A stretch of DNA of 61,490 nt from Candidatus Saccharimonadia bacterium (GTDB lineage: Bacteria; Patescibacteriota; Saccharimonadia; UBA4664). Within the stretch, counting starts at the first letter, position 1, and every line of letters starts with the position of its first letter. Positions 3,600-61,490 of this stretch are shown here, in pieces. The notes beneath the pieces are model-generated. The model made no database searches and was not told where the DNA came from. It worked only from the letters and a program-made list of their open reading frames with translations. Position numbers and translations under genes: made by a program. The stretch lies in the NCBI GenBank assembly GCA_035544015.1, contig DATKIP010000113.1, positions 1 through 61,490 of the forward strand. The letters are read 5' to 3'.

Positions 3600-3671
3600 G
3601 ACGGCGTGCCAGAGTGGCTATGGCTCCGACTGCAAATCGGGTGTATGGCGGTTCGAGTCCGCCCGCCGTCT
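3600..3671 (+). tRNA. tRNA-Cys (anticodon GCA), plus strand, antisense to the surrounding structural operon
   Basis: Acceptor stem GACGGCG/CGCCGTC. Anticodon arm UCCGA-CUGCAAA-UCGGG. T arm GGCGG-TTCGAGT-CCGCC. Discriminator U73, the CysRS identity base. It fills the 94-nt gap between two minus-strand genes. Confidence 0.8.
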
Positions 3672-3675
3672 CCGG

Positions 3676-9487: not shown

Positions 9488-11469
9488 GCAACCCTCCGTC
9501 CGCGCTGAAGCAGCCCAGAGCCCGCGAGCGCCTGCGCGATCACATCACGCGGCGCCCCCATGCTGACCAGCCGCGCTGCTGCCTCGACAGGATCGAAGCC
9601 CCCGCCGGCAGCGCCGGCCAGCAATGAGTCCATCGGGCCGCCCTGGCCGGGTTGTGGGCTCGACGGCTGGTCACCGCCGACCGCCGATGACGCGAACGAC
9701 GACAGTGGCCCCTGCCCGAGCGGGGCCTTTTGCATGTCGCCCTGATCCTGCTGCGGGTACGGGTTCTGGCCCGGGATGATGTTGTACTTGTAGGGCTGAT
9801 ACTGTGACTGCTGGTAGTTCGGATCGGTAACGGTTGGGTCAGTAGGCACCTGGATCGGGAGCATGCCATCGGTCGGCAAGTCGCTCGGGATGGGGTTAGC
9901 TCCCGGCAGAATACCCCCACTGGGTGCCGGCGGCAGCGGCGCAGCGGGTTGCCACATCGGTGCCGTCCCTGGCGCCACTGGTGGCTGCCAGACGCTGCCG
10001 TCCTGTCCGGCCGGTCCCGCGTTCGCTGCTGCCTGCGCATTACTAGGTGGCGGCCCGGCCGGAGGTGTCGCCATCGCGGGGGCGGGCGCAGCAGCAACCG
10101 GCACGGCCGGTGCTGGCGGGGGTGCTGCATTCGGCGCGATGCTGCCGGGCACGGCGCCCAATCCGAGCGCGGGTGCTGGCGCTGGCGCGCCCGGCGGCTG
10201 GTACGGCTCGGGGGTCGGCCCGGTAGCCGCAGCCTGCTCCTTGGCTGCCGGTGGCTGGGCCGTGGCTGCACTCTGGGCGCTCGCGATCTGGAACATGGGA
10301 TGCAGGCCCGGGAGTTGCGGGGTCTTCGCCGTTCGCTCCTCGCGGTTCTTGTTCATCTCCCAGAGCAAGCCAGGGATGACGTTCTTCAGGCTGCCCGAGT
10401 CGGGGTCGAACCCGCCCTTGCTGGTTAGCGTCGAGAACGCCCCGAGCGCCGACGTGAAGTCTGATGCCGCCTCCTCGCTTCTGGTGTTGCGGAGCCCCGC
10501 CTCGTCCTGCTGGCGCTGACGAATGACCGTGTTGGCGTTCGCCACGTTCGTGATGGCCGTGCCAGCCCGCCCATGCGCTTCCTTGACAGCGTTGTCGTAG
10601 TCGTCCTGCGTGATGCCGCCCTGCTCGGCAGGGAGCCCGATCTTCTGACGCTGACGAGCGGCCCACGCGCCAACACCGACATCCAACCCTGGATCGTCAA
10701 AGTTGATCTCGAACGGGTCCACGTTCTTGAGCGTGACGCCGGGCTTCGGCACTTCGATCGTGACGAATGAGGGTGGCTGCTTCGGGTCGGCCGCGTTCGG
10801 CTGCCACACGCCCCACTGACCGTTGACCTGGACGGGCTTCGGAGCGGCGGCTCCTGGCGCGTTGGCAATCGGCGCCCAGACCGGCGGGTTCTTCGTCGTG
10901 TCGAAGTACCCCCACGAGCCGTCAGGAGCCTGCTGGGGCTTCGGGGCATTCTGGCGGGCCTGATCCTCACGAGCCCGTGTGTCGGCTTCATCCTGGCGCG
11001 ACCGCTGCCTGGCGGCCTCCGCATCGGAGCCCTGCTGCTTGATCCGCGCGTCTGCCCGCGTTCGGCGTTCGGCGTCGGTCTCGTAGGCCGGGTCTTGATT
11101 GGCCGGTAGCGCGGCGTTCTTCTCGCGCTGGCGCTGAAGCTCAGCGGCGTTCTTCTTCTCGGGAGTGTCGTCGGCTGGCCTGCCAGGGTTGGCATCACCC
11201 TGGTTCACGATGTCGAAATCACCGTCAGGGCGCCGGCGCACATTGAGCACTGCGCCAGTCGGCTTCCCCTCACCGTCAACGGCCGTCCACTTCTCTTCGC
11301 TGATCTCGATGGTGGCCGGTGCGGTCGGGTCGTAGTCGGGGTTGTCCGTGCCATCCGCTCGCGTGAGTTGCTTTGCTGGGTTCGCGACCTTCTGCGTGGA
11401 CCGGCTGTACTGGACCCGCTTGTCCCCACCCTGCTGGGCGATCCACTTCTCGACATCCTGCTGGTTCAC
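9484..11469 (-). CDS. Internal virion/ejection-type protein, 661 aa, with long Pro/Ala/Gln-rich low-complexity regions
   Basis: Track ORF with an ATGA-type overlap to the giant upstream gene. The function call rests on composition and position only. Confidence 0.7.
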   Translation of the reverse strand: MNQQDVEKWIAQQGGDKRVQYSRSTQKVANPAKQLTRADGTDNPDYDPTAPATIEISEEKWTAVDGEGKPTGAVLNVRRRPDGDFDIVNQGDANPGRPADDTPEKKNAAELQRQREKNAALPANQDPAYETDAERRTRADARIKQQGSDAEAARQRSRQDEADTRAREDQARQNAPKPQQAPDGSWGYFDTTKNPPVWAPIANAPGAAAPKPVQVNGQWGVWQPNAADPKQPPSFVTIEVPKPGVTLKNVDPFEINFDDPGLDVGVGAWAARQRQKIGLPAEQGGITQDDYDNAVKEAHGRAGTAITNVANANTVIRQRQQDEAGLRNTRSEEAASDFTSALGAFSTLTSKGGFDPDSGSLKNVIPGLLWEMNKNREERTAKTPQLPGLHPMFQIASAQSAATAQPPAAKEQAAATGPTPEPYQPPGAPAPAPALGLGAVPGSIAPNAAPPPAPAVPVAAAPAPAMATPPAGPPPSNAQAAANAGPAGQDGSVWQPPVAPGTAPMWQPAAPLPPAPSGGILPGANPIPSDLPTDGMLPIQVPTDPTVTDPNYQQSQYQPYKYNIIPGQNPYPQQDQGDMQKAPLGQGPLSSFASSAVGGDQPSSPQPGQGGPMDSLLAGAAGGGFDPVEAAARLVSMGAPRDVIAQALAGSGLLQRGRRVA

Positions 11470-14400
11470 GGTGCCCCCGATCTCAGCGTCTCACGCTGCT
11501 GCTGGCGTGCTTCAAGGACACGGCGGCGGATATCCCCCGCGCCGATCGACTGCATGAGCCGCTGGTCGGCCGCATCGTTGGCCTGGCGCAGCAGATCCTC
11601 CATTGCCACCTTCCGAGCTTCGGGATTCGACCAGAAGGTGCGGCTGGTCAGGTTACCGCTGAAGCGCTGGAGGATCTCGCCGCGATAGGTATTCCAGCGT
11701 CGCGTCTCGTCTGGTGTCAGATCCATCGGGATGGTGTCGACGGTCAGCTTCGTCTTCGGAAACCCGATGTCCACGCCAGCGTCAAGGAACGCCTTGACGG
11801 TCGGGTCGGGCTTCTCTGCCGACGTCCGCGCGAACACGGCCTTGACGCCCTGTTGTTGGTTCTCCTGGGGCCGCCCGAGCACGTCCTGCGCGATCGGCAG
11901 CCCGCCGCGTGCCCCGATGCCGCTCTGGACCTGCTGGCTGATAGTCGTCGAGGCTGGCGTGTTCTTCCCCGAGTCGACCGTCCGCTCGTTCGGGTCCAGG
12001 GCCGTGCCGATGGTCCGAGCAGTCGCGGCGTACGGAACCATGCGGGTGATCGTTGAGGATGCGTACCGCTCAGCGGCCGATCCCAGGCCGCCGCCATACC
12101 CGGCCTGGATTGTCTGCATGATGCTGGAGATGCCCTGGAGGTACGGCTGCTGCTGGAGCTGCTGGCCGAGGCGCCCGGCGTAGTTACTGGCAATGCTGGT
12201 CGGGCTCTTGTCCTTGCTGTAGGCGATCGAGTCGTGAACGTCAGCCGCCGCGTTCAGCAGTGGCGCGTAGATGCCCATCACGCGGTTCGGGACGTACACC
12301 CCATCGATCAGCGTCGAGTACGGACGCCAGCCCTGCGAGCGCATCTCCGCTTTCTTCTGCGGGTCGTCGGGGCCACCTCCCGTGATGACGCCGCTTGCGA
12401 CCGGCCCGGCCGCCAACCCGATCATGAGTGCCGACCCCAGCGTGGCATCGTACATCTTGTCGAACTTCGAGCCCTGGCTATTCATCGCGAAGCCGATCGG
12501 CGAGCGCTCGGCCAATCGGGTGTTCATGTTCCAGGGGGTGTTGAAGAACGGCGTCACGAGGTTCCCGACCACGGGCATGTTCCCGACCGTCGCGAAATTC
12601 CGCGCCTTCTTGCCGATGGTGCCGAGATCGTCCTGAAACGTCTGGCGCTTGGCGTAGGCCGCGCCCTCATCAATGACCGTTTGCGTGCCCGAGAGCGTCG
12701 GCAACTGACCCGCACGAACGTTCGCAGCGTCGGTCAGCAAGTCGTTGACGTGTTGCTTCCAGGCCGTGCCCTTCAGCCCGGCGTCCGTCGCCTGCTGCGC
12801 GGCTGCCCTGGCCTCGCCGGCTCCCTGGGCGATGGTCCCGAAGACGGCGTCAGGCAGCGCCGAGAAGACGCGCCCGCCGGCCTCCAGTCCTGTTGTGATG
12901 GCCTTGCCGATCGGATTCTGCGTCTGGGCCGAGAGCGGCTCATGCCCCGGCGTCGGCGCGTACTTGCCACTCGCGGTCAGCGCATCCACCATCGCCGAGC
13001 CGACCTGAGAGAGCCCGTGGAATGCACCAGCAGCCATCTCGCCCGGCTCCCGCAGCGCCGAGGCGTTCCCGGTGCTGATCGCCCTGGCAACGCCGCGTGT
13101 GGTCTCCTTCGGGATGGCGTAGAGCGGTTCCGCCACGTTGCCCGTCAGGTTCACGGTAAACGTCGCCGGGCCAATCATCGACGAGTACCCGGATTCGGCA
13201 AAGAGCTTGCGCACCCATTGGAGCGGAGAAAGTCCGGGCGACGCCTGCCGCTGCGCTCGCTGGACGGCGCGCTGCACGGCGTTCGGGTTGAAGCCACCGG
13301 CACCCGGCGCCTGCCCAAACATCGCCAGCAGGCCACTATCCGCGCCGGCCGTGCCCCCCTGTCTCGCTGCAATCGCCCGCATGCCCTTCGTGATGGCGTA
13401 CGGCGCGACGGCCCCCACCGCAAAGCCCTTGACGCCCGCGTACGGGTCGTCTGGGTTCATCTCCTGGTTGACGGCCGCGCCGACCCCGCCCGAGACGGAC
13501 GACGCCACCCCCTGCCCGAGCACGCGGTTCACGGCAGACAGGCGGTCGGGAGCGGCGGATGGGGGGAGGGTGCCGGCTGTCACCGACGCGGTTTGAGAAC
13601 CCGGCGCGTAGCGAACAGCATTCCCCATCTCGTTGGTTGTGTAGGCTAGTGTCCTCTCGATGCGATCCACTGGAATCGGCTTCGGGGTCTTGATGTACCC
13701 GTCGTGGTCAAGGCGCCAACCGTCTTGCGGGTCCACGCGGATTCGGACAGCCACAGCCTCGCCGTTCTTCGGATTGTAGAACGGCGACGGCTCAAATGTA
13801 CTCGCGACAGTGCCCTCACGGGCGTCGAGGTTCAGGCGTCCGTCCGACTGAAGGAAGCCGCGACGGAGTGAGCCCTCGTAGTCCTCGCGAGAAATCACTC
13901 GATAGACAGCATCGAGCGGTTGGCGAGTGCCCGGGATCTCCTCAGCGTTCCCGAAGAAATTCGGACGGTACTGCGCCATCTCGGGGCCATTCGGGCCTTC
14001 CGTCACGCGCCACTCAGCCGCCCGCGCTCTCGTTACCTGCCGACCTGTGGAGTCCGTATATGGCTCAGTGATCGGCTCCTCGCGCGGGCGCACGCCCAGA
14101 TCCTCAGTGAGCCGGCTTTCCCAGATATCACGCGGTGTTCTCGGCGCCTCATCCGGCACCACCCCGAACCCGGCATTGAGTCGGCTACTGGTGTCCACCT
14201 GTGGCGTGATCTCAGGGCCGATGCCGGCCGCTCGCAGATCGGGATGCACAGCCTCGCGCGGCATCCTGGAGTCGCGGATCATCTCAGCAGACGCCTCACC
14301 GAGGGCGCCCTGCTCGAAATCGCCTATCCGTCCCTTGATGGGCGGGTACGGGCGTCCGAACTCCTCCGGGATCTGCCCGAGTACCCCAGGAGCCACCGTC

Positions 14401-16553
14401 GAGCCTTCAGCAGCCATCCTGGCGTCAGCAGCAGCCACGTTCTCGGCGTTGCGGGCCATCCACTGCCCGAAGCGCTCGGCCGGCACACCATCCTTGATCG
14501 CCTGAAGAATAGGCCCGCCCAGTCGTCCGCCAACCTTGATCGCGCCATAGCCCAGCCGCGCGGCGTCGCGAACGAGCGCGGCTGTCATGATGGCGTCGCC
14601 CAACCCGACCTCGCCCACAATGGGGAAGTTGCCTTTCGGCACCATCTCGTTCAACTGCCGGGCTAGCGTGGTGGACGGCGCCAGGTCGCCGACGACCCCG
14701 AGCGCACCCATCGCCGCCTCGCCGTAGTTGCCCTCGGCAACTCCTGACTGTGCGGCGCCAATGTTCCGGCCGAGCGAGCGCCCGGTCTCCACAATAGCGC
14801 GGTCGATGGTGGTCTCAGGCTGGCCCGAGTCCGGCAGTGGCGGCTTGCCGAGTAGTGGGCGCGTCACGGCGTTGGCGATGCCCCGGCCGATCGGGGTTGC
14901 GATACCCTCGGTGGCGACGGTGTTGCCGATATCCTGCACGGCGCCCTGGACATACCCGACAATGGCGCCGCCAGCGTCGTAGAGCGGCTTGAACGGGCTC
15001 TTGGGTTGTGCTGGCTGCTCCGGCCCGGCCTGCTCGAGCGGAGGCCCGTATGTCGGGCGTACGTCATTTGACGTACTCGGTGGCGTGTATGGAACCTGGG
15101 GCTCGTCGCGGGCGTCGCCGTAGGTGGACGGTACATCCGGCGGTACACTTACGGACCTCTGGGGGTACGCCTGAGGGGTCACCGGCGTACCGGCCGGCGG
15201 TACATCAGACGGTACGGCTTCCCACCGTCCGCTATCAGCGTCCCTCGGATCGTACTCCGCGCCGGTCGCCGTGTCCGGCCCCATCGTCGCGGCGAGCGGC
15301 TGGCGCTGCATATCCCCCATGTACCACGCGGACGAGCCCGGGGGTGGCCCGGTCTCCCCGTTGGCCGGGTCATAGGGCACATCGTTGCGCAGTGGCGGGG
15401 GAACAGGCTCGTTTGGGTCAGAGAGCCGCTGGACGTAGCGCTCGGAGTCGCTGGCATCCTCCGGCATCGGATGGGCGTCACCGAGCGCCATGCGTAGCGA
15501 GTCGCCCTGGGCGCTCTCCTGCGGCGTCGAGAGCACGGTCAGATCAGCCGCGCCGCCCGGCCGCTTCCTGAACGCCTCCGGGGTCATCGTGAACGTGTTA
15601 CCCCACTGGTCACGGACGGTGTACAGGCCAGAGGAGCCCCCGGCTGCCGGGGGAGTACCAGCAGCCGGGGGCGCAGGTGGGGCAGCCGGCGCAGGGTTCG
15701 CGGCCCCAGCGCCGGCGTTCGGAGATGCGCCGCCGTACTTCGAGGCGGCCTGACGGAAGAGTCGGACGTACTCGTGACCGTCCACCGATGAGCCGTCAGT
15801 GGCGCTGGTGACATTGCCCTGGCCGTCGATCGCCCCAAAGTACGCTGCTGCTGCCTTATCGGGGTCGCCGTACCGCCGCAGGGCGTCGCCGTAGACCTTG
15901 GCCCCCCGGAAGATGTTGGTACGCGGGTCTTTCGGGTTCTCGCCGGGCTTGAAGTGGAACGGCATCACCTGCATCAGCGACTGCGCACCGGCCGACGACA
16001 CGGCCTCGGGATCGCCGCCCGACTCGATCTCCATCAGCCCCTTGATCGCCCACTCGGGGACGTTCTCGGCGCGCGCCGCCTCAGCGACGATGGACGACCA
16101 GCGCTCGACATCGGGGCTGCCTGTGCCGCTTGACGGGGCATAAGAGGAAGGGGTTAGCGCAGCCGAGGGCGTTGGCAATCCGTTGGCGTTGGCGTTGGCG
16201 TTTTCACCAACGGGTGTTGGTGTTGGGCCAACGGGCTGCTTCGGAGCACTAACCCCCAGGCTCTCCAGGCTCGGGAGCGCCCACGATGGCGCGGTGTCGG
16301 CCACGGCCTGACGGGCGCGCTGAGGAACGCTGCCGAGCGCCGACATGACGGACGACGGTGCACCCGTGACGCCCAGACTTTCGAGGCTCGGAAGCTGCCA
16401 GGACGGCTGTTCGGGCTCAGGCTGGGGATCTGGCGTCGGGTTGATGGCCTGCGCGTACCGCTGCGTCACGTCGTCGACCAGCGACACCGTGCGCGCCCCG
16501 GCGGCAGCGGCATCGTTCTGGTTGAGCGTGCGGCGCGGCAGATAGAGCGGCAT
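11466..16553 (-). CDS. Giant internal virion protein with an SLT lytic transglycosylase domain, 1695 aa
   Basis: Track ORF 11466..16661. I prefer the ATG at 16553 (MPLYLPRRTL), one nt after the upstream stop. SLT signature WAIKGLMEIESGGDPEAVSSAGAQSLMQVMPFHF lies about 200 aa from the N-terminus. Confidence 0.85.
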   Translation of the reverse strand: MPLYLPRRTLNQNDAAAAGARTVSLVDDVTQRYAQAINPTPDPQPEPEQPSWQLPSLESLGVTGAPSSVMSALGSVPQRARQAVADTAPSWALPSLESLGVSAPKQPVGPTPTPVGENANANANGLPTPSAALTPSSYAPSSGTGSPDVERWSSIVAEAARAENVPEWAIKGLMEIESGGDPEAVSSAGAQSLMQVMPFHFKPGENPKDPRTNIFRGAKVYGDALRRYGDPDKAAAAYFGAIDGQGNVTSATDGSSVDGHEYVRLFRQAASKYGGASPNAGAGAANPAPAAPPAPPAAGTPPAAGGSSGLYTVRDQWGNTFTMTPEAFRKRPGGAADLTVLSTPQESAQGDSLRMALGDAHPMPEDASDSERYVQRLSDPNEPVPPPLRNDVPYDPANGETGPPPGSSAWYMGDMQRQPLAATMGPDTATGAEYDPRDADSGRWEAVPSDVPPAGTPVTPQAYPQRSVSVPPDVPSTYGDARDEPQVPYTPPSTSNDVRPTYGPPLEQAGPEQPAQPKSPFKPLYDAGGAIVGYVQGAVQDIGNTVATEGIATPIGRGIANAVTRPLLGKPPLPDSGQPETTIDRAIVETGRSLGRNIGAAQSGVAEGNYGEAAMGALGVVGDLAPSTTLARQLNEMVPKGNFPIVGEVGLGDAIMTAALVRDAARLGYGAIKVGGRLGGPILQAIKDGVPAERFGQWMARNAENVAAADARMAAEGSTVAPGVLGQIPEEFGRPYPPIKGRIGDFEQGALGEASAEMIRDSRMPREAVHPDLRAAGIGPEITPQVDTSSRLNAGFGVVPDEAPRTPRDIWESRLTEDLGVRPREEPITEPYTDSTGRQVTRARAAEWRVTEGPNGPEMAQYRPNFFGNAEEIPGTRQPLDAVYRVISREDYEGSLRRGFLQSDGRLNLDAREGTVASTFEPSPFYNPKNGEAVAVRIRVDPQDGWRLDHDGYIKTPKPIPVDRIERTLAYTTNEMGNAVRYAPGSQTASVTAGTLPPSAAPDRLSAVNRVLGQGVASSVSGGVGAAVNQEMNPDDPYAGVKGFAVGAVAPYAITKGMRAIAARQGGTAGADSGLLAMFGQAPGAGGFNPNAVQRAVQRAQRQASPGLSPLQWVRKLFAESGYSSMIGPATFTVNLTGNVAEPLYAIPKETTRGVARAISTGNASALREPGEMAAGAFHGLSQVGSAMVDALTASGKYAPTPGHEPLSAQTQNPIGKAITTGLEAGGRVFSALPDAVFGTIAQGAGEARAAAQQATDAGLKGTAWKQHVNDLLTDAANVRAGQLPTLSGTQTVIDEGAAYAKRQTFQDDLGTIGKKARNFATVGNMPVVGNLVTPFFNTPWNMNTRLAERSPIGFAMNSQGSKFDKMYDATLGSALMIGLAAGPVASGVITGGGPDDPQKKAEMRSQGWRPYSTLIDGVYVPNRVMGIYAPLLNAAADVHDSIAYSKDKSPTSIASNYAGRLGQQLQQQPYLQGISSIMQTIQAGYGGGLGSAAERYASSTITRMVPYAATARTIGTALDPNERTVDSGKNTPASTTISQQVQSGIGARGGLPIAQDVLGRPQENQQQGVKAVFARTSAEKPDPTVKAFLDAGVDIGFPKTKLTVDTIPMDLTPDETRRWNTYRGEILQRFSGNLTSRTFWSNPEARKVAMEDLLRQANDAADQRLMQSIGAGDIRRRVLEARQQQRETLRSGAP

Positions 16554-16554
16554 G

Positions 16555-16722
16555 TCAGAACCCCAGGCGTCCCTTCGGTCGCGGCAGCACCTGATGTTCG
16601 CGATAGTCGCCGGCGCCATCGGGCACCAGGATGAACGGCGCGGCGTCGGGCTCACGCTCATTCACGCCATGCGCCGAGCCGCTCATGCGATCGTCAACCC
16701 AGAAGTCCTCATCCCAGGCCAC
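16555..16722 (-). CDS. Small protein, 55 aa
   Basis: Last 55 codons of track ORF 16555..17541. GTG at 16722 downstream of AAGGAG. Sequence (M)AWDEDFWVDDRMSGSAHGVNEREPDAAPFILVPDGAGDYREHQVLPRPKGRLGF with high GC3. The rest of the track ORF overlaps the SDR gene out of frame. Confidence 0.5.
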   Translation of the reverse strand: MAWDEDFWVDDRMSGSAHGVNEREPDAAPFILVPDGAGDYREHQVLPRPKGRLGF

Positions 16723-24309: not shown

Positions 24310-24659
24310 GACGGCCTCTGTCCTACGGGCACCGCATGCATGTGGATATCGGGGCGATCACACAGTAGGCAGACGAACCCCGAGGCGGATACTGCCCAGG
24401 CTTCGTGAGCCTGTTCGTGCGCTTGCAACGCCACTAGTATTCGATCCGGAGCATCGTCGAGACGACCAGGAACTCGCCGACAGCGCGGGTCAGTTGCATA
24501 CTCCCGGCGCCCGCTCTCGCAGTGGAAGCGCGCCTGTAAACGAAGGCTCACCACCCCAGATTGCCGGTCATAGTGTTCAAACCACGTATTCACCGATGTG
24601 CGGGTCCGCGCCGCGATAGGACGCACCTCAGCCAGCAGGCGGTGGATCTGGTCGTACAT
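24303..24659 (-). CDS. Hypothetical protein, 118 aa
   Basis: In frame with track ORF 24303..24683. The ATG at 24659 shares a base with the terminase stop. Confidence 0.6.
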   Translation of the reverse strand: MYDQIHRLLAEVRPIAARTRTSVNTWFEHYDRQSGVVSLRLQARFHCESGRREYATDPRCRRVPGRLDDAPDRILVALQAHEQAHEAWAVSASGFVCLLCDRPDIHMHAVPVGQRPSW

Positions 24660-26122
24660 CACCGCACCCCCGTCGACTGCCACTCGCCGAACAGCGCAGC
24701 GAGCCGGGCATCCTTATCGCTCTTACCGTTCAGGCCGGTGAAGTCGGGCACGGGTGTCGGCTGCGTCGGCCGGCCGTTCGTCGCACCAGTGCTAAAGCCG
24801 AGGGGCATAGATGTGGCGAGCGCCGAGAAGTCTGGGATCGACTCCATCGCCATCAGGCCGTAGCGGAGCGCGTCGTACTCGTCATCCGGGCCATCCGTAT
24901 CGACGTCCTCAACCTTGTGAGCGTCGTAGACCAGGGATGGCAGGTTCTTGATGAGCTGGATGCACGACGAGAACACCTGGAGATGCGGACGACCGTCCGG
25001 CGCATCTTTCAGGTACTCACGAACTCGGGCCAGCCCGTTCAGGCGATCGTTGTTGGCGTGCGTGAGCGTGACGCCGTTCTCGAAGTAGATCTGCGCGATC
25101 GACTTGCCAGAGTCAGGCGACTTGATCCACATAGCAGGGTCCGCAACATGCAGCCTGATCTTCTCGTCCTCGCCCGTCAGACTGACCACAGCCTGCGCTT
25201 GCTGCGAGGCAAGCAGGCCGGGCTGGCTGATCTCGCGGTAGATGTAGACCCGGGGCACGCTCTTGTCGAGCGCGGCCCATAGCGTGACGAACGGCCGAGC
25301 AGAGCCGTAGTCCGTCATCCGTACCCGCTGCCAGTCCTTGTCAAGCGGGATCGGATCAATGACGTGCTTCTCGCGGCGCCACTCGGTGAGCACCTGGCCG
25401 GCGAACACGTCCCAGTCACCGTCACGCAGTGCTCGCCGATCCTGCTCCGGTAAGCTGTTGAGCACCATCATGTACTGCGGGTCGGCGTCAAGCAGAATCT
25501 GGTTGTCGTAGATGTTCGAGAAGTGGAAGCAGCGCGTCGGCAGCGGGTCGCCCTGCTCGTTCCGTGGTGTCCACGGCGCGCAGTCTCGGGTACCGCGCGA
25601 CAGGAACCGCTCTTTGACCCAGGCGTGGCCGATGCCGCCTGGGTTGAACGTGGTACGCAGGTATGGTTTGATCTCGGGCACCGACGACCGACACTGCGCC
25701 ATCAGGAACGTGTACTGCGTCTCGGAGAACTCTTCGAGCTGATCGAACGCCATGAAGTGATACTCATGGCCGTGGTAGATCCGCTTGTCCTCTTCGTTCT
25801 CGCAGTGGCGCATCGAGATCATCGCACCGGACGGGAACGTCCATCGGGCGTGGTCGCCGTTCCACTTGGCTCCCAGCGGCGGGAACCACTCCCAGGCCCG
25901 GTCCATGACTTCCTGGAGGCGCTTGTACGTGCGGCGGAAGATGATCGCCCGGTAGCGCGAGTGCCCAACGCCGCGCGTGGCTTCCATCAGCATCGCCAGC
26001 GTCTTACCAGGGCCTTTGGTGCCGCCGAAGCCGGACTCGAAAGCAGGGCAAGCGTGCCACGGCTCCTGCTTCGATTGGGGGCGATAGACGAGGCGTGGCG
26101 GCGCCGATGCGACAGCCATCAA
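24659..26122 (-). CDS. terL: Terminase large subunit, 487 aa
   Basis: Walker A-like GFGGTKGPGKT. Walker B/coupling region HEYHFMAFDQLEE. The C-terminal nuclease-type region has conserved acidic residues. It follows a small-terminase-like gene. Confidence 0.85.
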   Translation of the reverse strand: MMAVASAPPRLVYRPQSKQEPWHACPAFESGFGGTKGPGKTLAMLMEATRGVGHSRYRAIIFRRTYKRLQEVMDRAWEWFPPLGAKWNGDHARWTFPSGAMISMRHCENEEDKRIYHGHEYHFMAFDQLEEFSETQYTFLMAQCRSSVPEIKPYLRTTFNPGGIGHAWVKERFLSRGTRDCAPWTPRNEQGDPLPTRCFHFSNIYDNQILLDADPQYMMVLNSLPEQDRRALRDGDWDVFAGQVLTEWRREKHVIDPIPLDKDWQRVRMTDYGSARPFVTLWAALDKSVPRVYIYREISQPGLLASQQAQAVVSLTGEDEKIRLHVADPAMWIKSPDSGKSIAQIYFENGVTLTHANNDRLNGLARVREYLKDAPDGRPHLQVFSSCIQLIKNLPSLVYDAHKVEDVDTDGPDDEYDALRYGLMAMESIPDFSALATSMPLGFSTGATNGRPTQPTPVPDFTGLNGKSDKDARLAALFGEWQSTGVR

Positions 26123-46908: not shown

Positions 46909-46928
46909 CGGACGGACAGGATACGCGG

Positions 46929-47013
46929 CGGAGCGCCCGGGAGTCGAACCCGGCGGGAGTTGCCCCCTTACCTCATTAGCAGTGAGGCGCCTTAGCCGAT
47001 CGGCATACGCTCC
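46929..47013 (-). tRNA. tRNA-Ser (anticodon GCU), class II
   Basis: Acceptor stem GGAGCGU/GCGCUCC. Anticodon arm CCUCA-CUGCUAA-UGAGG. Long variable arm. T arm CCGGG-UUCGACU-CCCGG. Discriminator G73. Confidence 0.8.
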
Positions 47014-47016
47014 GAG

Positions 47017-47088
47017 AGACAGCGGTCGGAATCGAACCGACGATCACCTGATTTGCAGTCAGGGCCATAACCACTCTGGCACGCTGTC
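47017..47088 (-). tRNA. tRNA-Cys (anticodon GCA)
   Basis: Acceptor stem GACAGCG/CGCUGUC. Anticodon arm CCUGA-CUGCAAA-UCAGG. T arm GUCGG-UUCGAUU-CCGAC. Discriminator U73. Confidence 0.8.
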
Positions 47089-47089
47089 C

Positions 47090-47165
47090 TGGTGCACCCG
47101 GAGGGATTCGAACCCCCAACCCTCGTGTCTTGAGCACGGCGGCTCTACCGTTGGCCTACGGGTGC
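47090..47165 (-). tRNA. Class-I tRNA with anticodon CAA (Leu by anticodon), CCA encoded
   Basis: Sequence GCACCCG-UA-GGC..GCC-G-CCGUG-CUCAAGA-CACGA-GGGUU-GGGGG-UUCGAAU-CCCUC-CGGGUGC-A-CCA. 76 nt with a 5-nt variable loop and A73. Confidence 0.7.
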
Positions 47166-47273
47166 TGGCCGGAGCACCGTGAGTGTGGTCCCGGCGATCC
47201 TGGGCTCTACCCCCCTGCCTTCACCAGTTCACGGTTCCCCCGAAGTTATCAGGGGTCGCTGGGATAGATACGG

Positions 47274-47348
47274 TACTCCCGGTCCGATTCGAACGGACAC
47301 TGTCCTGCTCCTAAGGCAGGCGCCTCCTACCAGTTGGGCTACGGGAGC
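47274..47348 (-). tRNA. Class-I tRNA with anticodon UAG (Leu by anticodon)
   Basis: Sequence GCUCCCG-UA-GCC..GGC-G-CCUGC-CUUAGGA-GCAGG-ACAGU-GUCCG-UUCGAAU-CGGAC-CGGGAGU-A. 75 nt with a perfect anticodon stem and A73. Confidence 0.7.
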
Positions 47349-47349
47349 G

Positions 47350-47433
47350 CGGACGGGACAGGAATCGAACCTGCGGGGACTCTCGCCCCTGCTCTTTTCG
47401 AGAGAGTGCGGCCAGCCAACGACCAACCCGTCC
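47350..47433 (-). tRNA. tRNA-Ser (anticodon CGA), class II
   Basis: Acceptor stem GGACGGG/CCCGUCC. Anticodon loop CUCGAAA. Variable arm GGGG-CGAGAGU-CCCC. T arm GCAGG-UUCGAUU-CCUGU. Discriminator G73. Confidence 0.75.
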
Positions 47434-47439
47434 ACGGCC

Positions 47440-47448
47440 ATTGTAGCA
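47440..47448 (-). promoter_or_regulatory. Extended -10 element (TGcTACAAT) 7 nt upstream of the first tRNA
   Basis: Minus strand reads TGCTACAAT. The predicted start would fall at about the 5' G of tRNA-Ser(CGA). No good -35 element. Confidence 0.4.
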
Positions 47449-47499: not shown

Positions 47500-47607
47500 T
47501 ACTTATGAGCGCTCACAGCGGTTTACCCGCCCAGCCCCCGCGCCACCGAGCGCCATCCGCGCCATAGCCCGCGCCAACGGGTGCCATAGGCGGTGGACAA
47601 AGAGAGA

Positions 47608-47631
47608 GCCCCGACCTGTGAAGATCGGGGC
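47608..47631 (-). terminator. Hairpin followed by a U-rich tail on the minus strand
   Basis: gccccga / tcggggc (7 bp, 10-nt loop). On the minus-strand RNA it is followed by CUCUCUCUUUGUCC. Confidence 0.4.
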
Positions 47632-47799
47632 CTCCTCTCGCTGGGCTTGCGCCCGCACCCGGCCTCGCGAGGAAGACGGGGGAATTGTGAGCGGGGCCCT
47701 ATGCCCCACCACCGAAGCCGGCCGGACTGGCGATGGGTGCGGTACCGCGCTCACTGAGAGCATACCACCCGCCGCGCGGCCGGCGGGACGGGCTGCCGA

Positions 47800-52654: not shown

Positions 52655-52978
52655 ATGGACATCATGAACGCTGCGGACCATGAGGCGCTGACTGCCATCT
52701 CCAGACTCTACAGCGCGCCGGCACACCGACTCCCGCCGGCTGTCCTCGTTCAGCATGACCTGCTCACCGGGCGCGCCCACGTCAACATCCCCCCGATCAT
52801 GCGGTCTGGTCTGGAGCAGCTAGGCTACGATCCGAATGCCTACGGCCGCACCTACGAGGACAATCTCCGTCGTCAGGGTCTCTGGCCCGCCGATCGCCCG
52901 CCCTTGTACGTGCTGCCCCGCATCAAACCCTGGAGTCGGCGCGGCTGGCGTGTGGTGATCGGGCACAGGAAGCGTTAG
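52655..52978 (+). CDS. Hypothetical basic protein, 107 aa
   Basis: Track ORF. Its stop codon overlaps the stop codon of the convergent endolysin gene (gTTAGg). Confidence 0.55.
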   Translation: MDIMNAADHEALTAISRLYSAPAHRLPPAVLVQHDLLTGRAHVNIPPIMRSGLEQLGYDPNAYGRTYEDNLRRQGLWPADRPPLYVLPRIKPWSRRGWRVVIGHRKR

Positions 52979-54177
52979 GCGGCGGGCAGCCGGTCGCGGA
53001 GCACGGTCAGGCGGCTGATGATGTCGTCGAGATCGGCGCGGCTGATCGAGGATGACGGGACTGGAGTAGGCGCCGGCATCGGGGTGCCGATGAGATCCGG
53101 ATGCAGCACCCGAACAATGCTGGCGTTGTTGCCAGCCCTGGCCTCGAACTGCTGGCGCGTAAGCTCGGGCTGACCGTAGGTCGCACCGGTAGCGGGATTG
53201 GCCAGCAGAATGACGTCTCGCGCCGGATCGTAGCCCCGCACGCCGCTCCAGTGGCCGTGGCCGGCGCCGCCCCAGACCGGCAGTCCCAGCAGCAACGGAT
53301 ACGGCGGATGCGCGTTGATCTCAGGGATGAGCTGATCCCAGGAGATCGGGCACTGGTTGTTAGAGATCCCGTAGCCGTCCGAGCCGTAGTGCTTCGGGTC
53401 GCCGATCTGCAGCCAGGTAACGATGCCGGCGCCAGTGTGGTCGAGTAAGCCAACCTCCTTGGAGACGATGTTCAGATTGACCATGTCGGTCTCGATCCAG
53501 TCGGTGGCCGGGGTCCGGCCCAGCGCGCGCATCGCCCACGTCAACGAGGTCGGGGCGCACGACCAGTCGTCGTTCTGCAGCACAGCCGGGTAGTCGGGGT
53601 TGAACGTGACGGGCATGGGTGTCTCCGTGGGGGCGGCGTAGGCGTCGAGGGCGCTGGCCATCGCGATCAGGCGGTCGAGCCCAGCCGTTCCGCCCTGGAA
53701 GACGCGGCGCACCCAATTCCAATCGTGTTCGTGGCAGAGCTCCACCATCGTGTAGAAGTGCGACCCGTTCTTGGCAGGGACGCCCTTGGTGGCCCAGAAC
53801 CAGGCTAGGATATTGGCGCTGATTTTCGGGTCTAGCGCCAGGTCGGGATTGCTGACGAGGTCGATGCCGAGCGCGTCACCCGCGTTCCGATAGTTCGACA
53901 AGTGCGTCAGTTGCGGGAAGCCTCGGCCGGCGAAGTCGGGGCCGCCCTCGTACCCTGCCCAGTTAGCCGTCGTGCCGTACTCGTGGATCGGCTCAAAGGT
54001 CGATGCCGTCTCGATGGCGACCGTAGGCAACACACCGAGGCAGACGTCGCGATCGTAGATCCCCCGCACGTACAGGGCATCGACAATCAGCGGCCAGTTG
54101 TGGGTCACAGCATCCACGGGGCAGCCAGTGATGCGGGCGATCGTAGCCGCGTCCCACCAGCGCCAGGGATCAGCCAC
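52975..54177 (-). CDS. Two-domain endolysin: GH19 muramidase/chitinase-like + C39-like (papain-fold) cysteine peptidase, 400 aa
   Basis: GH19: AIETASTFEPIHEYG...GRGFPQLTHLSNYRNAGDALGIDLVSNPDLALDPKISANILAWFW. Peptidase: NDDWSCAPTSLTWAMRALG...GHGHWSGVRGYDPARDVILLANP. The GTG at 54177 overlaps the holin stop. The track extension to 54423 overlaps the holin gene out of frame. Confidence 0.8.
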   Translation of the reverse strand: MADPWRWWDAATIARITGCPVDAVTHNWPLIVDALYVRGIYDRDVCLGVLPTVAIETASTFEPIHEYGTTANWAGYEGGPDFAGRGFPQLTHLSNYRNAGDALGIDLVSNPDLALDPKISANILAWFWATKGVPAKNGSHFYTMVELCHEHDWNWVRRVFQGGTAGLDRLIAMASALDAYAAPTETPMPVTFNPDYPAVLQNDDWSCAPTSLTWAMRALGRTPATDWIETDMVNLNIVSKEVGLLDHTGAGIVTWLQIGDPKHYGSDGYGISNNQCPISWDQLIPEINAHPPYPLLLGLPVWGGAGHGHWSGVRGYDPARDVILLANPATGATYGQPELTRQQFEARAGNNASIVRVLHPDLIGTPMPAPTPVPSSSISRADLDDIISRLTVLRDRLPAA

Positions 54178-54508
54178 GGCTGGCCTCCAGCAACCGAGGC
54201 TCATCGGGCTCGTCCACCGCATCCGGAAACCGCTGGCGCATCTGGGCCGCGCGCTCGCGGAGCACCGCTTTCGCGATCTCGTCGACGGTCGGCACGGTCG
54301 GCTGAGAGCGCCACGCTCCCACCGCGTCTGAGGCGCCTTCGGCGACGGTATAGATGCCAACGGCGCCGAGGGCGGCTGTTTGGAATTCGCTCCACGTGAT
54401 GTGCCCGCCCCAGTAGCCGGCAATGGCCAGCGCCAGCATGAAGAGGCACAGGAGCAGTTTCCGACTGGTTAGGCGGTTGTACAGGTCGTCAAGCTTTGAC
54501 TGACTCAT
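54170..54508 (-). CDS. Holin-like membrane protein, 112 aa
   Basis: MSQSKLDDLYNRLTSRKLLLCLFMLALAIAGYWGGHITWSEFQTAALGAVGIYTVAEGA... has 2 hydrophobic segments and a charged C-terminus. ATGA overlap upstream. It lies immediately before the endolysin. Confidence 0.55.
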   Translation of the reverse strand: MSQSKLDDLYNRLTSRKLLLCLFMLALAIAGYWGGHITWSEFQTAALGAVGIYTVAEGASDAVGAWRSQPTVPTVDEIAKAVLRERAAQMRQRFPDAVDEPDEPRLLEASRG

Positions 54509-60342: not shown

Positions 60343-61490
60343 TTAGGCGACATAAGCCGCCTCCGAGTCGTACACGCTCCCATCGTTGTAAGCCGGCTCG
60401 CGGGCAAGCACGGTGAACCGGATCGTGGCTTCGATCTGCCAGTGGTCGCTGTCCTTGACCTCGCGCTCTTTCCAGACCGCGCCCTGCTCCAGCGCGATCG
60501 TGTACGTCGTGTTTTTCCAGTCGACGATGGTGGCCGGGCGCGGCCCTTGCGCCGCGATCAACACCTCCCACGTCGCCTGCGGGTTACTGGTCGTGTCGTA
60601 CGTGCTATCGCGGAGTTTAATGCCCGTCCCGAAGCGGAACCGGCCTTGGTAGACCGTGCTGGCCTTGATGCCCTCCCCCGCCCACAGCGTGTACGCGCGC
60701 AAGATCGGCGGCGTGGTCCCGGACCCGGCCAGGAAGTCGATCGAGGGTGCAACCTGCCGACCGTTGATGTCGTCGACGATCCGCGCCTCGGTGTACGGGC
60801 TCTCGGTGACGGTGGCGCCGAGCTGTACCCGGGTCTCTTTGTCGGTCGAGACGTACGGCGTCAGGTACGACGTGTCCGAGCACGACTCCGAGACCACCGC
60901 CACCTGGCGGACCGCCTTCTGAGCGTGCACACCCTGGCTCCAGGGATTCGACGACAGGTACAGCGTGCAGGTATCCGTACGGGCTCTCCACGGGCCGCCG
61001 GAGGCCAGTTCCTGGAGGATGTTGCCGTTCCTGGGGAGCGACATCCAGTACAGGTGCGTGGTCGTGTCGGCAGCGTTCCGGGTGCCGACCCACATCCTCG
61101 GATTGCCGCCGGGAGCGGCCATCTTCAGCCAGGTGATCTTCTCGCCCTCGATCACCAGCGGGCAGGAGTGCCAGACGAAGTTGGTGATGCCCGGTTGCCC
61201 TGGCACAGCCTCGCGGGGCTTCCCGAAACTGACGTACGACGTCTGGCGCACTGTGTCGTACTGGCAGTAGACGATCCAGTCCTTGTACCGGCAGATCGCC
61301 GATCCGTCGCCAGCGACGGGGGTCTCGTTCGGGAGGTCCGAGCCCGGACCGACTGAGAACGGCTGGTCGTTCAGTTGACCGTCAAGTCCCTGGAGCATGT
61401 CGAGGTCGGACAGGACGTTGGTGTACATTCGCCCCTGGACGATCACCGCGTTGGCGCCGTTCGTGGCGTTGACAACGTCTTCCCAGTAAG
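60343..61490 (-). CDS. 3' part of the 679-aa tail protein that starts at 1030 (unique part 60343..61349; 61350..61490 duplicates 1..141)
   Basis: Track ORF 60343..61446 begins inside the terminal repeat only because the window is cut there. The frame stays open to the window edge and is in phase with 1..1030. Confidence 0.75.
   Translation of the reverse strand, partial: YWEDVVNATNGANAVIVQGRMYTNVLSDLDMLQGLDGQLNDQPFSVGPGSDLPNETPVAGDGSAICRYKDWIVYCQYDTVRQTSYVSFGKPREAVPGQPGITNFVWHSCPLVIEGEKITWLKMAAPGGNPRMWVGTRNAADTTTHLYWMSLPRNGNILQELASGGPWRARTDTCTLYLSSNPWSQGVHAQKAVRQVAVVSESCSDTSYLTPYVSTDKETRVQLGATVTESPYTEARIVDDINGRQVAPSIDFLAGSGTTPPILRAYTLWAGEGIKASTVYQGRFRFGTGIKLRDSTYDTTSNPQATWEVLIAAQGPRPATIVDWKNTTYTIALEQGAVWKEREVKDSDHWQIEATIRFTVLAREPAYNDGSVYDSEAAYVA
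61350..61490. repeat. Terminal direct repeat copy 2 (identical to 1..141)
   Basis: Exact 141-nt identity with the start of the window. Confidence 0.9.

Follow-up and report, generated by a model that had tools for sequence, protein, structure and literature searches.

The Phage Contig and Its tRNA Array

The window analyzed here, a stretch of 61,490 nt, is the whole of one of the 116 contigs in a 1.71-Mb assembly. Bases 1-141 are identical to bases 61350-61490, and we therefore take the assembly to be circularly closed, giving a complete phage genome of approximately 61.35 kb. The contig is a phage genome that encodes a terminase, an internal virion protein, and an endolysin (Table 1). ARAGORN called six tRNA genes, five in a minus-strand array and one elsewhere. 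The array order is Ser(CGA)-Leu(UAG)-Leu(CAA)-Cys(GCA)-Ser(GCU), with spacers of 0-2 nt except for a gap of ~107 nt between the two Leu genes. A prior reading of the letters without database searches (hereafter, the sequence-only reading) had described a five-gene minus-strand array with these anticodons, long variable arms on both Ser tRNAs, and tight spacers interrupted by one gap of this size. ARAGORN agrees on the array and on the Leu anticodons caa and tag, the Ser tRNAs are 85 and 87 nt long, and the spacing was confirmed. In Rfam, tRNA-Ser(CGA) gave only a sub-threshold tRNA-Sec-like match of 37 bits.

Table 1. Features of the phage contig, with positions numbered from the first base of the window.
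Feature	Position	Strand	Basis	Remarks
Large terminase (TerL)	24659-26122	minus		Phage gene
1731-aa internal virion protein with transglycosylase domain	11466-16661	minus		Phage gene
Endolysin	52975-54423	minus		Phage gene
tRNA-Cys(GCA), second copy	3600..3673	plus	ARAGORN; Rfam 53.4 bits	Outside the array
Terminator-like hairpin and T-rich tail	47607..47632	minus	Promoter/terminator scan	Closes the upstream operon ~170 nt before the array
Candidate extended -10 element TGCTACAAT	47440..47448	minus	Read from sequence	Ends 6 nt upstream of the tRNA-Ser(CGA) gene
tRNA-Ser(CGA), class II, long variable arm	47349..47433	minus	ARAGORN	85 nt; first array gene; ends G73 + C, without CCA
tRNA-Leu(UAG), class I	47274..47348 (ARAGORN span 47272-47348)	minus	ARAGORN; Rfam tRNA (RF00005) 55.0 bits; model R1 96.5 bits	
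Spacer of ~107 nt between the Leu genes	47166..47271	minus	ARAGORN, Rfam, fold test	No recognizable gene
tRNA-Leu(CAA), class I	47090..47165	minus	ARAGORN; Rfam tRNA (RF00005) 52.6 bits; model R1 69.7 bits	
tRNA-Cys(GCA)	47016..47088	minus	ARAGORN; Rfam 61.8 bits	U73, without CCA
tRNA-Ser(GCU), class II, long variable arm	46927..47013	minus	ARAGORN; Rfam 37.5 bits	87 nt; last array gene; ends G73 + CC

The spacer between the two Leu genes holds no minus-strand tRNA remnant detectable by ARAGORN at relaxed thresholds and no Rfam match in E-value mode, and its predicted fold is no better than that of shuffled sequences (z = -0.84). In Gordonia phage Sixama, an annotated HNH endonuclease CDS (1268-1510 of the fetched locus) overlaps the first 10 nt of the homologous tRNA-Leu(tag). 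By analogy, the spacer could be the scar of an HNH-type insertion. Upstream of the array, TGCTACAAT is a candidate promoter element by its sequence. A consensus promoter scan missed it because it has no -35 hexamer.

Structure of the Two Short Leucine tRNAs

Excluding the CCA, the tRNAs with the Leu anticodons UAG and CAA measure 73-75 nt. Each has A73, a D stem of 3 bp, and a variable loop of 5 nt. A canonical bacterial class-II tRNA-Leu has 83-88 nt and a long variable stem-loop, and neither Leu tRNA of the array has that length or that arm. Elsewhere in the assembly there are five class-II Leu genes, with lengths of 84-86 nt. The UAG tRNA has 75 nt through A73, followed by CC. Its acceptor stem begins with a G1-U72 pair, its D loop is AACUGGUAGG, its variable loop is ACAGU, and its anticodon stem (CCUGC/GCAGG) closes the loop CUUAGGA. 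The gene is an exact match to the family D-arm motif GUAGCCCAAYUGGYAGGAGGC. The CAA tRNA has 73 nt plus an encoded CCA, the only one in the array. It begins with G1-C72, has the anticodon loop CUCAAGA and the variable loop GGGUU, and carries a C27/A43 mismatch in the anticodon stem. Its D arm, GUAGGCCAACGGUAGAGCC, is a variant in which pair 11:24 of the 3-bp stem is flipped to G-C, as in the Leu(caa) of mycobacteriophage Cali. In the ARAGORN cloverleaves of both tRNAs, C13 and A22 are unpaired in the D stem. Both have A14, A73, the A15:U48 Levitt pair, G18G19, and the D-loop segment GGUAG, and their acceptor stems are GCUCCCG and GCACCCG.

These structures bear out most of what had been read from the letters, i.e., the stem and loop of the UAG gene, the loop of the CAA gene, the lone encoded CCA, the short variable loops, and A73 on both tRNAs. 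The 3-bp D stem was also read correctly. Its description as Gln/Glu-like does not hold, because class-II tRNA-Leu of the same assembly has a 3-bp D stem as well.

Two further details of these tRNAs recur elsewhere. The G1-U72 wobble is kept in 22/27 aligned short tRNA-Leu sequences, the UAG gene of the window included (alignment columns 1 and 75), and is also found in two class-II Leu genes (taa and caa) of the bin. The CAA tRNA has G37 after A36 and thus is without the A36-A37-A38 context used for i6A37 on UUR-reading tRNAs. G37 is also found in the Leu(caa) of Cali and of two loci designated L010 and L159.

Relatives in Phages

For the UAG tRNA, a BLASTN search of GenBank phages gave 88% identity over 76 nt to a gene of Gordonia phage Sixama annotated as tRNA-Leu(tag), and ~82% identity to a 76-nt tRNA-Leu in dozens of Bxz1-like mycobacteriophages. 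For the more distant CAA tRNA, the best full-length matches include tRNA-Leu of Streptomyces phages, e.g., Manuel, and the nearest neighbors are mostly short tRNA-Leu. ARAGORN found three short Leu tRNAs of 74-76 nt each in Sixama and Cali, and one of 77 nt in Manuel. Long arms are kept on the Ser tRNAs of Sixama and Cali and on the Tyr tRNA of Sixama. Actinophage records in GenBank routinely annotate members of this family as tRNA-Leu.

Relatives of the phage itself were harder to find. Megablast of the array region against GenBank phages gave no match. A TerL search in IMG/VR returned one 8.4-kb contig at 80% identity, which ends short of the array. No relatives were found for a 186-aa protein encoded downstream of the array, and an exact pattern taken from the CAA tRNA matched nothing in IMG/VR. 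A tblastx comparison of the window with all fetched loci recovered only the TerL relative and tRNA-level matches. One locus of similar make-up, L159, is on a 69.6-kb contig of a Terracidiphilus MAG and encodes a small array, Ser(cga)-Leu(cag)-Leu(caa)-Ser(gct), whose Leu(caa) is 87% identical to the UAG gene of the window. No protein similarity to the window was found in the 8 kb of this locus that were compared.

A Conserved Family of Short tRNA-Leu

We aligned 27 short tRNA-Leu sequences, including both genes of the window. Of the cells in paired positions, 98.5% are paired, and 15 of the 20 pairs vary on both sides. When the partners were slid by 1-3 columns in the same 27 sequences, 37-46% were paired. 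A73 and U48 are invariant. The high pairing and the two-sided changes indicate that selection maintains the tRNA fold in this family. From the alignment we built a covariance model, R1, which replaced a strict 33-nt motif that at one mismatch matched 4/201 Actinomycetes genomes and was too narrow. In the calibration set, short Leu tRNAs scored 63-97 bits, and all other tRNAs scored 62.3 bits or less. The CAA tRNA is a divergent member, with a score ~7 bits above the best non-Leu tRNA. Across the assembly that contains the window and 20 relatives, the two genes of the window are the only R1 matches above 63 bits.

The family is widespread in actinomycete cells. At E ≤ 1e-14, R1 has matches in 106/121 genomes drawn evenly from the class Actinomycetes, and all 30 of the loci that were checked are solitary tRNAs of 74-78 nt with the anticodon tag, taa, or caa. 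In GTDB (one genome per species), where we searched with the D-arm motif of the UAG gene, most of the matches listed are in the Actinomycetota, including Micromonospora, Actinoplanes, Pseudonocardia, Nocardioides, and Streptomyces. Among the matches listed, the short tRNA-Leu is the lone tRNA in 8 kb of chromosome in 74/120.

For two complete chromosomes, all tRNA matches were listed, and every one of at least 80 nt was fetched along with the low scorers. In Micromonospora sp. SH-82, the tRNAs of at least 80 nt are four Ser, one Tyr, Leu(taa), Leu(cag), and Leu(gag). The sole Leu(tag), at 78 nt, and the sole Leu(caa), at 77 nt, are both class I. In Streptomyces sp. YU58, the long Leu tRNAs are gag (two copies), cag, taa, and caa, and the sole Leu(tag) has 76 nt. 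Because both organisms use the standard code and neither chromosome has another decoder for CUA, the short tRNA must insert leucine. This is a strong inference from the gene content of the two chromosomes. The sequence-only reading had taken class II to be the norm for bacterial tRNA-Leu. That premise fails for the lineage that matters here, in which the short form is the sole UAG isoacceptor of two chromosomes. Leu(cag) and Leu(gag) are class II in both of these chromosomes, and in phage arrays the short form occurs with every one of the six Leu anticodons.

Probable Leucine Identity

The association between tRNA body and anticodon was tested by searching for the D-arm motif of the UAG gene, GTAGCCCAAYTGGYAGGAGGC, with the anticodon left unconstrained. 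On viral contigs in IMG/VR, 96/96 called tRNAs with this motif have Leu anticodons (tag 34, caa 29, cag 12, taa 12, gag 8, and aag 1), and 93 are short. In GTDB, the anticodon is Leu in 120/120 among the matches listed, of which 118 are short (tag 85, cag 19, gag 9, caa 5, and taa 2). Judged by its called anticodons, the D-arm body type is exclusive to Leu, at 216/216 among the matches listed. The UUR and CUN codon boxes share nothing but leucine, and a body found on both boxes and on no others is thus a leucine body.

The loss of the long arm is likewise a property of the Leu tRNAs. Across 99 loci (three GenBank phages, the rest IMG/VR contigs), 181 of 227 Leu tRNAs have 79 nt or less, vs. 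2/88 Ser tRNAs and 2/20 Tyr tRNAs. [quoted passage not shown] For SerRS, the size of the arm is the main identity element, and a long arm is required (PMC9976931). The Leu-only loss of the arm matches these identity rules. An edit-distance comparison of D arms with the tRNAs of the bin was also tried as a test of identity. Leu did not rank first; the closest D arms were not those of the bin's class-II Leu tRNAs, and the D arm appeared superficially Gln/Thr/Ala-like. The comparison was dropped in favor of the motif-anticodon association.

It is probable that both genes are functional Leu tRNAs of a widespread class-I family, one that is normal for some Leu isoacceptors in Actinomycetes and common in the arrays of their phages. 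As the family is normal in actinomycete chromosomes and phages, the short Leu tRNAs of the window are ordinary. The two are most likely ordinary leucine acceptors reading UUG and CUA/CUG. Of the options raised by the sequence-only reading, the one favored by the evidence is its first, i.e., Leu tRNAs for UUG and CUA that lack the variable arm.

Host Assignment and Codon Supply

The contig is an unusual member of its bin. It has 65.6% GC, vs. ~59% for the other large contigs of the assembly, and shows the largest tetranucleotide distance among contigs of at least 10 kb. No 16-mer-seeded match was found between the phage contig and the other contigs of the bin. In the bin itself, Leu(tag) and Leu(caa) both belong to class II. 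A search for the CCA-adding enzyme family PF01743 gave no match in the bin or in 20 relatives (0.6-1.7 Mb), although 10/10 bacterial controls matched, and TIGR02692 had no match in the bin. The CCA is encoded in 47/47 cellular tRNA genes of the bin vs. 1/6 of the phage tRNAs, and its presence on all of the bin's genes fits a lineage without the PF01743 enzyme. The outlying composition, the lack of shared sequence, the class-II-only Leu tRNAs, and the missing CCA-adding enzyme together make the bin assignment doubtful. The small-genome bacterium with which the contig is binned is probably not the host of this phage. TBLASTN searches of phages for TerL and endolysin homologs gave no clear host signal. 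Saccharimonadia live on Actinobacteria, and it is therefore plausible, if speculative, that a phage of the partner actinobacterium was co-binned.

The bin has one other feature of note in its tRNA set. It has a tRNA-Arg with the anticodon GCG (contig C10, 92470-92545) where bacteria usually have ACG, and its called genes include no Arg(ACG). Several large tRNA arrays from other phyla (L130, L147, L158, L173, and L215) likewise contain Arg(gcg).

We infer that the tRNAs are expressed, processed, and charged with leucine in an actinomycete-like host, and that the phage benefits through codon supply. A promoter of the array's own, lying immediately upstream of tRNA-Ser(CGA), would probably drive its minus-strand transcription. 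The individual tRNAs would be released from the transcript by RNase P and 3′ processing enzymes of the host, and a host CCA-adding enzyme would complete five of the six phage tRNAs. Host LeuRS would charge both short Leu tRNAs, after which the CAA tRNA may read UUG and the UAG tRNA may read CUA (and CUG). The Leu tRNAs would then supplement isoacceptors in short supply in a high-GC host, whose phage uses those codons about twice as often.

Codon usage was compared with crude gene calls (ORFs filtered on third-position GC), using 63 family-bearing chromosomal loci (71% GC) as a proxy for the host. Relative to these loci, the phage uses TTG 2.0 times, CTA 2.3 times, AGT 2.3 times, and TGT 2.0 times as often; the ratios for TCG and TGC are 1.2, and that for AGC is 1.0. 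Relative to the rest of the bin, the ratios are 1.9 for Cys and 1.36 for TCG, vs. 0.58 for TTG, 0.57 for CTA, and 0.71 for AGC. TTG and CTA are rarer in the actinomycete proxy than in the phage, and commoner in the bin than in the phage. Codon supply fits all six tRNAs on the assumption of a high-GC actinomycete-like host, but with the binned organism as host it does not fit the Leu tRNAs. Since TTG and CTA are under-used relative to the bin, the codon-supply argument holds only with a true host of higher GC.

Alternative Explanations

The charging identity of the two tRNAs might differ from their anticodons, in which case another synthetase would charge them and UUG or CUA would be recoded during infection. 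In favor of this, the body is class I, as in most tRNAs for other amino acids, edit distance gives the D arm a superficial Gln/Thr/Ala resemblance, and the CAA anticodon is one base from a Phe or Met anticodon. We nevertheless regard recoding as very improbable. The body occurs only with the six Leu anticodons, and it is the only decoder of CUA in the two standard-code actinomycetes. The elements of Gln identity (a weak 1:72 pair such as U1-A72, G73, and U35 with G36) are absent, as the tRNAs of the window have G1-C72 or G1-U72, A73, and A35. The G3:U70 pair of Ala identity is absent from both, and Ser identity would require the long arm. The anticodons pair with the sense codons UUG and CUA/CUG rather than with stops, and the phage ORFs are open under translation table 11, covering ~86% of the contig. 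The suggestion of recoding in the sequence-only reading is thus unsupported. It is unlikely, too, that the genes are hitch-hiking or decaying copies without a role in the phage, gained by recombination with the tRNA arrays of other phages. Decay might explain the CCA missing from five of the six tRNAs, the mismatched anticodon-stem pair of the CAA gene, and the otherwise unexplained spacer, and we found no close phage relatives with the array among GenBank phages or in IMG/VR. Both cloverleaves are, however, intact and score like cellular tRNAs, and actinophage tRNAs as a rule lack an encoded CCA. The spacers of 0-2 nt, the candidate promoter, and the downstream genes on the same strand resemble a working transcription unit.

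The arm-less Leu tRNAs, along with the Ser and Cys tRNAs, might instead replace host tRNAs that are destroyed or blocked by defense or toxin enzymes for which the long arm is a handle. Phages would then favor the arm-less form because the arm is a docking site for MenT3-like nucleotidyltransferases or Schlafen-like nucleases. If this were so, the Ser/Leu/Cys array would be a counter-defense kit and not a codon-supply kit. Several observations are in keeping with this. All six Leu anticodons occur in the short form in the arrays of phages and mobile elements, which account for the 181 short Leu tRNAs above, and CAG and GAG are class II in the two chromosomes. MenT3 depends on the long loop of tRNA-Ser, and type-II tRNAs are targets of human SLFN11 (PMC11615386). 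The short form is, however, the own isoacceptor of most Actinomycetes and no phage invention, and evasion of nucleases is not needed to explain it because cells use the same short form. The Ser tRNAs of the phage retain their long arms. The UAG, Cys, and Ser(CGA) tRNAs have exactly the same anticodon loops as their cellular cognates, and the loops of the array overall match or nearly match those of the cellular tRNAs. No defense nuclease specific to class-II Leu tRNAs was identified in our analysis. Both the use of the tRNAs as counter-defense substitutes and the role of the arm as a docking handle have a small chance of being correct, slightly better than that of decay. Ordinary leucine tRNAs that supply codons remain the preferred explanation.

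Comparison with Known Leucine tRNAs

The short Leu tRNAs of the window appear to be ordinary phage-borne tRNAs with no sign of recoding. Most Actinomycetes and many phage tRNA arrays break the textbook rule that assigns bacterial tRNA-Leu to class II, and false alarms will continue wherever automated screens treat a short Leu tRNA as an anomaly. The type of tRNA that a phage carries can also hint at its host, and the type found here is that of actinomycetes. In an incomplete search of the literature, we found no paper that describes short tRNA-Leu as general in Actinomycetes or actinophages, and the sole explicit mention was of a short-variable-loop tRNA-Leu(TAG) in a tRNA cluster of Mycobacterium mucogenicum/phocaicum (Behra et al., 2019; PMC6582537). 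That tRNA is encoded in a chromosomal cluster of 11-14 tRNAs, beside a long-loop chromosomal copy, and is likened to the tRNAs of the window by its description (PMC6582537).

The closest known relatives of the UAG tRNA are in phages. The tRNA-Leu of Sixama (SEA_SIXAMA_150) and of Cali (gene 80) share its D-arm motif, G1-U72, A73, and an ACAGU-type variable loop, although the Cali copy carries the anticodon CAG. As in the window, the tRNA-Leu of Sixama and the Bxz1-like phages have no encoded CCA and lie in a tRNA array near long-armed Ser tRNAs. The phages themselves are different. Sixama and the Bxz1-like phages are myo- or siphoviruses of 114-155 kb with 20-40 tRNAs, whereas the phage of the window has 61 kb, podovirus-like internal virion protein genes, and six tRNAs only.

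The chromosomal class-I tRNA-Leu(UAG/UAA/CAA) of Actinomycetes share with the tRNAs of the window their architecture, the D-arm motif, a length of 74-78 nt, A73, and U48, and can be the sole isoacceptor for their own anticodon, as in SH-82 and YU58. The cellular copies are solitary, have GGGGCC or GCCCCC acceptor stems, and some encode the CCA, whereas those of the window are in a phage array and have other stems. How a Leu tRNA can work without the arm is explained by two other systems. [quoted passage not shown] The former are engineered and the latter is organellar, and neither is homologous to the natural family of short tRNA-Leu in bacteria and phages.
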